Shown here: positions 3,001 to 6,000 of the stretch, in pieces | Layout of the letters: each line of letters begins with the position of its first letter | Position numbering within the stretch: the stretch's first letter is position 1 | Assembly: GCF_016026235.1 (NCBI RefSeq) | Contig: NZ_CP065614.1 | DNA from: Escherichia coli | GTDB taxonomy: Bacteria > Pseudomonadota > Gammaproteobacteria > Enterobacterales > Enterobacteriaceae | Reading direction: 5' to 3' (one strand) | Length of the DNA: 64,000 bases | Position numbers: made by a program

Positions 3001-6000
3001 CCTGCCAGTACTGGTCCCTGGTGTTCCACAACCGGTGGTTGCTGGCAGAGATTAGCCGCATTGCAGCGGATGTGATACTGGAAATCTGCCATCAGGCAGA
3101 TGTGGAGCCGGGGATATTCACGGTGATCCACACATGGGGGCGTGACCAGCAGTGGCATCCGCATATCCATTTATCGACAACTGCCGGTGGTGTGACGTCG
3201 GGCCACACCTGGAAAAATCTTCATTTTTACGCCCGTAAGGTGATGAGCATGTGGCGCTACCGGATAACACGGTTACTGTCACGGAAATACCCTGACCTGG
3301 TGATGCCAGATGCGCTGGCAGCAGAAGGAAGCAGTAAACGGGAATGGAATCGCTTCCTGGACACGCATTACCGCCGTGGCTGGAATGTCAACGTATCCCG
3401 GGTGATGGATAATGCCACCCATGTGGCGGTGTACTTTGGCTCTTACCTGAAAAAGCCACCGGTGCCGGTGAGTCGTCTGGAGCATTATGCCGGTCAGGAT
3501 GAAATCGGACTGCGTTACAACAGTCACCGAACAAAACGGGAAGAATACCTGTTGATGAGTGGAGATGAGTTCATGGAAAGGTTCTCCTGGCATGTGGCGG
3601 ATAAGGGGTTCCGTATGGTGAGGTACTACGGTTTTCTGAGTCCGGCGAAACGGCGGTTACTGGAAGAAGTGGTGTACATCATAACGGAGACAGTGAGAAA
3701 AACGGCGATGCAAATCACCTGGAGAGGGATGTATCAGAGGTTACTGAAGGTTGACCCGCTGAAGTGCGTGCTGTGCGGGAGTCAGATGCGTTTTACGGGG
3801 CTGAAGCGGGGCTACCGTCTGGCAGAGCAGGTCCTGATGCATGAGCCGCTGGCCCGGATGCGGTGGTGCGGCTGAGAGCCGCAGAGGGTAAGTAGCGTCC
3901 ATTTTGAGGGAAACGGAGCAAAAAACCGCCATTCATACCCTGAATCAATCAGAGCCATCCAGTTTAATCGTCGGTTCCGTTCATATGAGCAAAAGTGGTG
4001 TTGAAGAAACATCCGTTTTGTGGTGTTTTTTTAATCTTTTTGGGGTTTTAATTCCTATCGATGAACGGAAGACGTTCAGCATAATCCCCCGGAACAGCGT
4101 TTCCTCATTCAGCGGGGCAAGGATAAAGGGGTCCGCTTGGAATTCGGAAATTTTCCCACGCTAAGAGAATTGAGTTAACGAGTGGTTACGTCCAGGCCAG
4201 CTAACTCACTGAACGTAAAGGCTGTACGAAATGTTCTGACCGTCCGATAACCGTCTGGCTTACTTCCGTACATTCCCTTGCGTGGATGTACAGAATTGTA
4301 CGATTTCGGACACCAAAACCGCTGTTATCCCGCCATCTTGGCGATTCCTGAAAGTCATTTATCTAAAAAATAGTCTTAACGTGGTTTATTTTCCGAATTC
4401 CAAGCGGACCCCTCAATAGACAGCGTGAATATCGATGGTTGCGCCACAGGCATGAGCATATTTTGTCAAAGTTTTCATGCTGGCCCCTAAAGGGTTACTT
4501 TCCAGGCGACTGATGGCTGACGGGCGTAACCCCATTCGTTCGGCCAGTGCTGACTTTGTTAATCCCGCTTTTTCTCTCATTTCGTATAACATTTCCACCA
4601 TCTCCAGTTCTTTGTCAGCATCCTCATACCCTTTGACAGCTTCTGGAGTACTGAGTAGTTTTTGCTTTACCTGGCTGAATGGAACACCTTTTACTTTCAT
4701 CAGTTCATCTCCTTCAGACGCATCCTGGCAATTTCAATAGCTTTCGTTGGTGTCTTTTGCGTTTTTTTCACAAATGCATGCAGCAGATAGATTTCGTTAC
4801 CCGTTGCATAAGCGTACAGTGTCCTTGCGATATTTTTATCCCCGACTCTCAGTTCAAAAAGCCCTCCGCCAATTACACGGCTGTGAGGCATTTTCATTTT
4901 GTTACCTTCCTGTTCCAGCCGTTCAATCAGTCTGGTCATACGACCACGCAGATTGTCTGGTAATTCTAGAAGTTCATCCAGTGCGGCCGGGTGAGTAATC
5001 ACATTAAACATATTATAGCCTCCAGAATGACAAAATACACTAAAACAGGAAAATTGCGCAAACAGTAAATTTCATCAATAAATGAAAATACACTCTGAGT
5101 TCGGAGGGGGGCAACTGGAGAAGAGGGATTTTTTGATGCCGCGTTAGCGGCATGGAAGGCGGCACTCCGTTGTTGCATATGGCACAGGAGTAAAACCGCC
5201 GAAGCCCGGCGTAAGCCGGTACTGATTGACAGATTTCACCTTACCCCCGTTACTTTATTCGTACCCCTTATAATGGGGTGTTAGCCAGCCAGACCCGGCA
5301 TGATTACTGCCCCCAGTCGTCCATGATCCGGGGGGTGATGTCACCGGGTCTGGTGGGGCGCTGGTAACCGCTAATAGGGGTCAGGTCAGGCACTTTTGCC
5401 GGGACCGTCTGTAACGTGGATGCCGGTACCTGCTCCCCGTGGTTATCTGGTTAACCCATATACAAGGGAGACAGAATGACCGAATCCAGCGATTACGAAT
5501 CCGTCCAGGTCTTTATCGGCGTTGATGTCGGTAAAGATACGCATCACGCTGTTGCCATTAATCGTTCAGGTAAACGCCTGTTCGATAAAGCATTACCCAA
5601 CGACGAAAACAAACTCAGGTCGCTAATATCTGACCTGAAACAACATGGTCAGATACTGCTGGTTGTTGATCAGCCAGCTACCATCGGTGCGTTACCTGTC
5701 GCCGTTGCCCGCTCAGAAGGAGTCCTTGTCGGATACCTCCCTGGACTGGCCATGCGCCGCATAGCCGACTTACACGCCGGTGAAGCTAAAACTGATGCTC
5801 GTGACGCTGCCATCATTGCCGAAGCTGCCCGTACCCTGCCTCACGCGCTACGCACGCTGAAACTGGCTGACGAGCAAATCGCCGAACTCTCCATGCTCTG
5901 CGGCTTCGATGATGATCTTGCCGCACAGACAACGCAGGCCAGCAACCGTATCCGCGGCCTTCTGACCCAGATACATCCGGCACTGGAGCGCGTTCTCGGT

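Follow-up and report, generated by a model that had tools for sequence, protein, structure and literature searches.

The window, as we call the whole 64-kb stretch of Escherichia coli DNA analysed here, carries a two-gene locus that is very probably an intact type II toxin–antitoxin (TA) operon of the Gp49/Tad-Ata (HigBA-like) kind, orthologous to gp49/gp48 of phage N15 and residing on a pINV-type virulence plasmid. Its two genes, both on the minus strand and both starting with ATG, are co-transcribable and overlap by one base: a 103-aa ORF (5011..4700) precedes one of 95 aa (4700..4413), with nucleotide 4700 common to the two. The coordinates (4413-5011 overall), the lengths and the single-nucleotide overlap bear out the original prediction, which had left the strand unstated; the junction, which it gave as ATGA, in fact reads TGATG, with the toxin stop TGA at 4702-4700 and the antitoxin start ATG at 4700-4698. 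That these are not chance ORFs follows from their Pfam matches, of the upstream product to Gp49 (PF05973; E=1.5e-28, model positions 1-90 of 90) and of the downstream product to HTH_3 (E=6.8e-12). A Shine-Dalgarno GGAGG can be read from the sequence on the minus strand at 5019..5023, 7 nt before the toxin ATG, and a second, AAGGAG (4709..4714, minus strand), lies 8 nt before the antitoxin ATG, within the 3' end of the toxin gene, a placement that suggests translational coupling. The same two-gene layout recurs at nine other loci, distributed over plasmids, phage-plasmids and chromosomes: together with the present locus, all ten keep a stop/start overlap of 1 or 4 nt, and the toxin Shine-Dalgarno is GGAGG in 7/10 and a degenerate purine-rich variant in the other three. 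There is no second copy of the pair in the 64-kb window.

The toxin (4700..5011, minus strand; 11.8 kDa, pI 9.75) falls in the Gp49/Tad/HigB-like branch of the RelE/ParE superfamily. Gp49 is its sole domain in a Pfam scan at E≤10; it also matches PHROG 2523 (E=2.4e-42), NCBIfam holds no family for it, and PF05973 is carried by all of the 120 homologues listed except two truncated fragments. The HMM search that had been proposed as a check thus returned a Gp49 protein where a RelE/ParE-like one was expected and an XRE-type HTH protein downstream, with the Gp49 gene preceding the HTH gene in the toxin-first order of higBA. The HigB/HigA-like label needs qualification: it stands insofar as this is a toxin-first Gp49/HTH pair, and fails insofar as the canonical HigB families PF05015 and PF09907 were considered and rejected, the toxin belonging to the Gp49/Tad branch. 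To elaborate, by analogy the toxin probably works like that of HigBA, yet with Gp49 as its sole Pfam domain it lies outside PF05015/PF09907.

Structure prediction points the same way. In the AF2 model of the toxin (pLDDT 87), two N-terminal helices and a four-stranded sheet are followed by a C-terminal helix (residues 89-102), so that the predicted protein shows a RelE (BECR) fold with a long C-terminal helix. The top Foldseek matches of this model are Streptococcus pneumoniae HigB (6af3/6af4) and Mycobacterium tuberculosis HigB1 (7nbu/7awk), with a query-normalised TM of ~0.75. In an HMMER alignment, using a published residue list (PMC9098466), HigB1 K58/E66/R68/N73/F93/K95/Q98/K99 correspond to R45/E53/R55/N60/F80/K82/Q85/K86 of the toxin, which by this alignment keeps residues equivalent to the proposed catalytic ones of HigB1. 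Among 37 toxin homologues E53, R55, F80 and R63 are invariant and K82 is nearly so; HigB1 R77 is paired with T64, the residue next to the invariant R63. Ribosome-dependent mRNA cleavage has been shown for HigB1 (PMC9098466), and PF05973 toxins as a family are described as degrading mRNA in a ribosome-dependent manner and as having the toxin-first gene order (Gerdes 2025, PMC11980606). Membership of the Gp49 family does not guarantee toxicity, since HigB2 and HigB3 of M. tuberculosis, which belong to it, showed none in M. smegmatis (PMC9098466).

The antitoxin (4413..4700, minus strand) is an XRE HTH protein with an N-terminal extension: a helical segment spans residues ~1-35 and the XRE-type HTH residues ~36-90. 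Beyond HTH_3 it matches HTH_37 (E=4.6e-5) in Pfam and PHROG 1373 (E=2.4e-34), and its sequence matches in the PDB include HipB, M. tuberculosis HigA2 and the S. pneumoniae HigA chain 6af3_B. For its AF2 model (pLDDT 83) S. pneumoniae HigA 6af3_D is the sole full-length structural match; the toxin and antitoxin thus each find a match in the same solved complex, 6af3, the toxin in chain A and the antitoxin in its partner B/D. Its NCBIfam HTH matches (HipB, PuuR, RstR, MqsA) fall far under the curated cut-offs and are uninformative, whereas those in PADLOC are generic HTH matches, for which membership in a defence system was rejected. Truncation by the adjoining miniature Tn3-type element was likewise ruled out: its 95 aa and its C-terminus are as in the homologues found elsewhere.

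Upstream of the toxin gene lies the perfect palindrome TTTCAT-N6-ATGAAA (5070..5087), 76 nt from the toxin ATG, with an imperfect extension over 5064-5094. It occurs once in the 64-kb window, and a perfect palindrome stands 76-81 nt before the toxin ATG in 7/10 homologous loci. Its arms vary from locus to locus by compensatory changes (TTTCAT/ATGAAA, TTTCAC/GTGAAA, TTTCTC/GAGAAA, ATTAAC/GTTAAT); in N15 they read TTTCAC/GTGAAA against TTTCAT/ATGAAA here. As such changes keep the symmetry, the palindrome at 5070-5087 is likely the operator, and we regard it as the candidate binding site of the HTH antitoxin. The element is annotated in the N15 record as a 'putative rho-independent terminator', a reading we reject: the hairpin is weak, no T-run follows it and the upstream genes run on the opposite strand. 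The RNA hairpin folds at -6.7 kcal/mol (z=-1.4), and 18 of 200 shuffled sequences fold as well. Between palindrome and gene, a candidate sigma-70 promoter (5032..5061, minus strand) comprises a -35 TTGCGC (5056-5061), an 18-nt spacer and a -10 TATTTT (5032-5037). It rests on an alignment of the upstream regions, in which the -35 TTG and a TATATT/TATTTT element are conserved; the promoter of an Enterobacter homologue matches the consensus better (TTGTGT-17-TATATT), and that of N15 closely resembles the latter, with the same two hexamers. A simple consensus scan did not call the candidate on the minus strand, and hence it should be read as weak or unconfirmed. Both copies of the motif AGTGTATTTT that the window contains lie upstream of the toxin gene, the second (5032-5041, minus strand) overlapping the candidate -10. 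An Rfam scan of 3800-5600 gave no match at E≤1, arguing against a type I/III RNA antitoxin or a riboswitch there.

These elements appear to move as a unit. Nucleotide homology to N15 (76% identity, with synonymous sites saturated) covers exactly 4413-5088 of the window, i.e., a 676-bp module on the minus strand that takes in the candidate operator, the candidate promoter and both genes, and stops at 5088, the outer edge of the palindrome. Homology to other carriers extends over 4413-5246 for pCoo and 4412-5126 for an E. fergusonii IncI plasmid. The flanks of the module are wholly different between hosts, and in 10 loci whose surroundings are unrelated the Gp49 and HTH genes still adjoin and overlap. 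At dN/dS values of 0.03-0.09, both genes are, on comparison of their sequences, under strong purifying selection.

Briefly, we advance the following mechanism for the TA operon, drawn from its characterised relatives. The toxin would enter the ribosomal A site and cleave mRNA under translation, bringing growth to a stop, whereas the antitoxin would bind and neutralise it. An antitoxin dimer, alone or together with the toxin, might bind the palindrome at 5070-5087 and repress the operon. Upon loss of the plasmid from a daughter cell, the antitoxin would be degraded faster than the toxin, with arrest or killing as the outcome. This in turn would help to keep the plasmid in the population, and perhaps the adjoining virF/ospE2 segment with it.

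How much the pair contributes to the maintenance of pINV is a separate question, on which its distribution bears. The pair is found near-identical (at least 99%; 99.7-100%) and intact in 34 plasmid records under three species labels, mostly pINVs of S. boydii, S. dysenteriae and EIEC, many of which have it 2-7 kb from virF. Some 70% of virF-positive plasmids are without it, the reference pINVs of S. flexneri and S. sonnei among them. Its absence from these reference plasmids is probably why the pINV literature is silent on the pair: the TAs named there are VapBC, CcdAB, GmvAT and, in S. sonnei, a P307-type RelBE (PMC10383432, PMC8923223), and the searchable literature holds no experiment on this locus and no study of the pair on a Shigella/EIEC virulence plasmid. 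The suggestion of an additional, or less-studied, addiction module on pINV therefore holds up, and the toxin–antitoxin interpretation of the original prediction is supported.

The alternative that fares best accepts a genuine TA and takes it for a passenger on pINV with no measurable maintenance role, one that would have been brought in by the replicon region of an IncF-type plasmid or by an N15-like phage-plasmid and would survive simply because it is not easily lost; we consider this possible, if on balance somewhat improbable. In pCoo the pair lies directly downstream of RepFIIA repA, and 235 nt of that context (5012-5246) are still attached in the window, where an IS91-family element, a miniature Tn3-type element and ISEc20 hem the pair in; the miniature element, 287 bp with Tn3-type ends and transposase-less, adjoins the stop codon of the pair. 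Its absence from most virF-positive plasmids fits a passenger too, as do precedents of functional TAs that have no effect on maintenance: the RelBE of the S. sonnei pINV is functional yet without measurable effect (PMC8923223), so stabilisation of pINV need not follow from a functional TA, and loss of SXT was unaffected by its homologue of Tad-Ata (PMC2654960). Against it stand the conservation and intactness of the pair across the 34 records, and the fact that selfish retention is itself the addiction phenotype, by virtue of which this reading differs from the TA operon proposed above in effect size rather than in mechanism.

At the other extreme, the pair might be a fourth, lineage-specific maintenance determinant of the S. 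boydii, S. dysenteriae and EIEC pINVs, serving chiefly to protect virF/ospE2 locally from IS-mediated deletion; this is a speculation that we regard as doubtful. It is prompted by the proximity of the pair to virF in many of these plasmids, and a vapBC moved to another site in S. flexneri has reportedly been shown to guard in this way. In a variant of the same idea there is cross-talk with N15-like gp49/gp48; if so, the pINV pair and its 86-91% identical N15-like counterparts would cancel each other's addiction.

Another proposal, unlikely in our judgement, gives the pair a main role other than post-segregational killing, namely phage defence by abortive infection, or interference with related elements, for instance by an antitoxin that neutralises an N15-like gp49. 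The closest relatives of the pair do reside in N15, phiKO2 and other phage-plasmids, next to the E. fergusonii IncI copy are genes for an Abi-family protein and a HEPN nuclease, and a defensive role has been argued for RelE/ParE toxins (PMC11980606). A weak partial PADLOC match to NsnC (E=1.3e-7) could be added to these; however, it aligns toxin residues 43-95 with positions 229-282 of a 293-position profile, and a stretch of 53 residues out of 293 indicates a common domain and not a system. There being no NsnC partner genes near the gene pair, that system was rejected. Nor does the window offer a defence-island context: the pair has IS elements and T3SS effector genes around it.

Finally, it is very improbable that the upstream gene encodes a gyrase poison of the ParE type, or a RelE-fold protein that has lost catalysis, and the downstream one a plain transcription factor, for although RefSeq applies the generic label 'RelE/ParE family' and some Gp49 members lack detectable toxicity (PMC9098466), Gp49 is the sole Pfam domain with no match to ParE (PF05016), the RNase-site residues of HigB1 and S. 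pneumoniae HigB have conserved equivalents in the toxin, and in Foldseek the ParE structures (ranks 23 and 28; E at least 0.05, against 6e-6 for HigB) match far more weakly than the HigB/RelE RNases.

The TA operon adds nothing new to toxin–antitoxin biology, and its practical value is limited. Its interest lies with the plasmids: work on pINV stability and on spontaneous avirulence has dealt chiefly with S. flexneri and S. sonnei, which carry plasmids without the pair, and it is a candidate maintenance system for the pINVs of S. boydii, S. dysenteriae and EIEC, the conjugative O96:H19 plasmid among them.

Against this backdrop, the pair can be placed among known systems. With VapBC (MvpAT), CcdAB, GmvAT and RelBE it shares the type II organisation, the plasmid family and a presumed post-segregational killing; their toxin families and targets are unrelated to those of the pair, save for a distant RelE-fold kinship with RelBE. 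Identity with the S. sonnei RelBE was rejected, as the latter is P307-type and antitoxin-first (PMC8923223) and lies near the origin, whereas the present pair is toxin-first. The canonical HigBA systems (Rts1/Proteus, PF05015; E. coli K-12, PF09907; V. cholerae HigB2, PF06296) follow the same logic, with a toxin-first order, a RelE-fold ribosome-dependent mRNase and an HTH antitoxin (PMC11980606); their Pfam families differ from that of our toxin, none was matched in the Pfam scan, and P. vulgaris HigB (E=1e-2) and V. cholerae HigB2 (E=3e-4) are distant structural matches. Closer in fold are M. tuberculosis HigB1 (the TAC toxin, Rv1955) and S. pneumoniae HigB, which have the same Gp49-type RelE fold with its long C-terminal helix and proposed catalytic residues that align, though at only 24-29% identity to the toxin (7nbu, 7awk, 6af3); the antitoxin is similar to S. 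pneumoniae HigA along its whole length, and the TAC system has a SecB-like chaperone gene that the pair lacks. Tad-Ata of Paracoccus aminophilus pAMI2 agrees with the pair in its Gp49 toxin family, toxin-first order and XRE/HTH antitoxin, and likewise the Gp49-HTH modules of Tn3-family transposons (Tn4662a, Tn5501.12) in toxin family, gene order and antitoxin type (PMC2701414, PMC7157771, PMC4133298). Both are probably distant in sequence; unlike the transposon modules, the pair adjoins no resolvase gene or res site, only the 287-bp element. The nearest is gp49/gp48 of N15, whose gp49 founded the Pfam family Gp49 and which is called a 'toxin-antitoxin-stabilizing system' in the title of the report on it (Dziewit et al. 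2007, J Bacteriol 189:1983). Being its orthologue, and already annotated in RefSeq as a 'type II toxin-antitoxin system RelE/ParE family toxin' beside a 'helix-turn-helix transcriptional regulator', the pair is no discovery. The N15 toxin and antitoxin are 91% and 86% identical to those of the pair, of the same 103 and 95 aa, with the same 1-nt stop/start overlap and a homologous layout of palindrome and promoter; what differs is the replicon, a linear phage-plasmid in the one case and, in the other, a pINV virulence plasmid on which the pair sits between IS elements.

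The two minus-strand ORFs at 4413-5011 constitute, in all probability, a genuine Gp49-type toxin-antitoxin (TA) operon. The 103-aa toxin ORF (5011..4700, ATG start) had been predicted to be RelE/ParE-like, and this is borne out by an HMM search: Pfam Gp49 (PF05973) covers it end to end (E=1.5e-28), with no other family reported in the Pfam scan, and it matches PHROG 2523 with E=2.4e-42. Among solved structures, it is closest in sequence to S. pneumoniae HigB (6af3_A, E=1e-5) and M. tuberculosis HigB1. An AlphaFold model built from 37 homologues (pLDDT 87) predicts a RelE-type fold, with a helix-helix unit, a four-strand sheet and a long C-terminal helix; Foldseek searches with this model place the same two HigB structures at the top (TM ~0.75, query-normalised), followed by RelE proteins and, far lower, ParE proteins. 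The residues proposed as catalytic in HigB1 include K58, E66, R68, N73, R77, F93, K95, Q98 and K99 (PMC9098466). When this list is mapped through a HMMER alignment, K58, E66, R68, N73, F93, K95, Q98 and K99 correspond respectively to R45, E53, R55, N60, F80, K82, Q85 and K86 of the toxin, and R77 falls one residue away from its R63. Of these positions, E53, R55, R63 and F80 are invariant in 37/37 sequences and K82 nearly so. Toxins of PF05973 act by ribosome-dependent mRNA degradation and are encoded toxin-first (Gerdes 2025, PMC11980606); some members of the Gp49 family show no toxicity (PMC9098466).

The prediction of an HTH-XRE protein for the 95-aa downstream ORF (4700..4413, ATG start) was likewise supported: its HMM search recovers an XRE-type helix-turn-helix (HTH_3, E=6.8e-12), preceded in the predicted model by ~35 residues of helix. 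In the PDB its sequence matches, among others, HipB, M. tuberculosis HigA2 and 6af3_B, which is the chain partnering the toxin's best PDB match, and S. pneumoniae HigA is the only structure with which the model aligns over its whole length. The toxin ORF lies 5' of the HTH ORF, and the proposed HigBA-like order agrees with that of PF05973 systems and with the reversed order found in all studied Gp49-domain modules (Armalyte et al. 2018, PMC5906591). As for the junction, the 1-nt overlap of the original prediction stands but its ATGA motif does not: on the minus strand, base 4700 is both the last of the toxin stop TGA (4702-4700) and the first of the antitoxin ATG (4700-4698), and the junction therefore reads TGATG. 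Shine-Dalgarno sequences can be read on the same strand 7 nt before the toxin ATG (GGAGG) and 8 nt before that of the antitoxin (AAGGAG). No second copy of either gene is present in the 64-kb window.

A candidate operator lies 76 nt upstream of the toxin ATG: the perfect palindrome TTTCAT-N6-ATGAAA (5070-5087), which occurs nowhere else in the 64 kb. Seven of 10 loci have a perfect palindrome at a similar distance from the ATG (76-81 nt), with compensated arms such as TTTCAC/GTGAAA (N15, Enterobacter), TTTCTC/GAGAAA (Xenorhabdus) and ATTAAC/GTTAAT (Yersinia), as would be expected if a dimeric HTH protein bound there. We rejected a terminator, the putative label in the record of phage N15: the RNA fold is weak (-6.7 kcal/mol, z=-1.4) and no T-run follows the palindrome. 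Downstream of this candidate operator, a TTG-type -35 and a TATTTT/TATATT -10 are conserved, the latter overlapped by a second copy of the motif AGTGTATTTT; we treat this promoter assignment as tentative because a consensus scan called no minus-strand promoter in the region upstream of the pair.

Comparisons with the copies in an E. fergusonii IncI plasmid, the plasmid pCoo, an Enterobacter plasmid and N15 gave dN/dS values of 0.03-0.09 for both genes where dS was measurable, the synonymous sites of the antitoxin being saturated, and no ratio computable, against the Enterobacter plasmid and N15. A single C-terminal residue separates the toxin from its E. fergusonii counterpart. In nine of nine further loci (Klebsiella, Xenorhabdus, Serratia, Buttiauxella and Yersinia, including two chromosomes and several phage-plasmid-like contigs) an HTH gene follows the Gp49 gene with a 1- or 4-nt overlap amid unrelated flanking genes. 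Nucleotide homology with N15 covers exactly 4413-5088, bounded by the antitoxin stop codon and the palindrome's outer edge, and so delimits a transferable unit of 676 bp. These patterns are evidence for a module that is intact and under selection.

The plasmid is of the pINV type (the Shigella/EIEC virulence plasmid), nearly collinear with EIEC pCFSAN029787_01 in three large blocks (99.7-99.9% identity). The pair is preceded by an IS91-family transposase (2643-3875) and a transposase-less 287-bp element with Tn3-type ends (4127-4413), which lacks any ORF, has 45-nt imperfect terminal inverted repeats and directly adjoins the stop codon of the antitoxin gene (TGA|GGGG). The outer 38 nt of these repeats (GGGGTCCGCTTGGAATTCGGAAA...ACGCTAAG) resemble the ends of Tn3-family transposons of the Tn21/Tn501 type. 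The element has the look of a TIME-type miniature element (cf. PMC4133298), with no match between its 5-bp flanks (ATAAA vs TCAAT), and occurs, unannotated, in 2170 plasmid records. A role in moving the module is a possibility because in the E. fergusonii plasmid it lies on the opposite side, 115 nt upstream of the toxin ATG (locus L002, 3708-4000). A search with all of 4300-5200 gives matches in 1783 plasmid records vs 296 for the pair alone, an excess to which the repeated element at 4300-4412 may also contribute.

On the other side, 5012-5246 comprises 235 nt found in pCoo between RepFIIA repA and the pair (92% identity), with a GC-rich hairpin and T-run at 5197-5211 (minus); it looks like a displaced IncFII replicon-region fragment cut off by ISEc20 (transposase 5476-6672). 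Then come ospE2 (7042-7308), ISSso6 and virF (10009-10794). The window also carries ipaH1.4, ipaH7.8, ipaH4.5, parA/parB and ipgB2, with ShET2/OspD3-like and OspF-like effector genes beyond 46.7 kb, interspersed with many IS elements. By coordinate comparison, the pair lies ~5 kb from virF here, 2-7 kb in several S. boydii, S. dysenteriae and EIEC pINV records, and 11-41 kb in others.

Thirty-four plasmid records contain the pair at 99% identity or more; their organism labels are S. boydii (12), S. dysenteriae (11), E. coli (10) and S. flexneri (1). The sole S. flexneri-labelled record, NZ_CP026812.1, may be mislabelled or represent a serotype that groups with S. boydii. Three reference pINVs, those of S. 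flexneri strains M90T and 301 and of S. sonnei Ss046, are in the collection (117 virF-positive records) but not among the 34. Copies at 92-96% identity occur in roughly 70 IncF and IncI plasmids of E. coli, E. fergusonii and E. marmotae, and 317 of 319 matching places in complete E. coli genomes are plasmid-borne. In E. fergusonii pRHB42-C01_2 (IncI; L002 1-2333) the neighborhood is defence-island-like, the pair adjoining 'Abi family protein' and 'HEPN family nuclease' genes. A truncated antitoxin gene alone, adjoining IS91, occurs in ~190-210 ColV/IncF-type plasmids of E. coli and Salmonella. This remnant (237 bp, 92% identity to 4490-4726; e.g., pAPEC-1, L005 3001-3237) retains 26 nt from the 3' end of the toxin gene and the first 70 antitoxin codons beside an IS91-family transposase; labelled in RefSeq as a longer 'helix-turn-helix domain-containing protein', it appears to be an orphan, C-terminally replaced antitoxin.

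Reviews and primary papers describe VapBC, CcdAB and GmvAT on pINV of S. flexneri, and VapBC and a P307-type RelBE in S. sonnei; within the limited literature collection searched, none mentions a Gp49/HigBA-like pair, and the O96:H19 EIEC pINV paper does not discuss TA systems. The suggestion of a module additional to VapBC, CcdAB and GmvAT is thus upheld for this literature. Its possible roles would be to help retain pINV itself or the virF region close by, where linkage may offer local protection against IS-mediated deletion (an idea attributed to PMC5629016). Functional TAs without a measurable maintenance effect have precedents, and we rate the chances of a measurable contribution to pINV maintenance as roughly even.

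Among known systems, the closest is that of N15, whose gene 49 (103 aa) and gene 48 (95 aa) have the same one-base overlap; their products are respectively 91% (tblastn against phage genomes and protein comparison) and 86% identical to the toxin and antitoxin. The Pfam family Gp49 takes its name from N15 gp49. RefSeq labels the toxin 'type II toxin-antitoxin system RelE/ParE family toxin' (WP_000483533.1) and the antitoxin 'helix-turn-helix transcriptional regulator' (WP_000865087.1). According to the title of Dziewit et al. (2007, J Bacteriol 189:1983), N15 encodes a TA stabilising system homologous to pAMI2 tad-ata. The pair belongs to the Gp49/Tad-Ata family, as the orthologue of N15 gp49/gp48: a system of a known kind, already annotated and very close to a published member.
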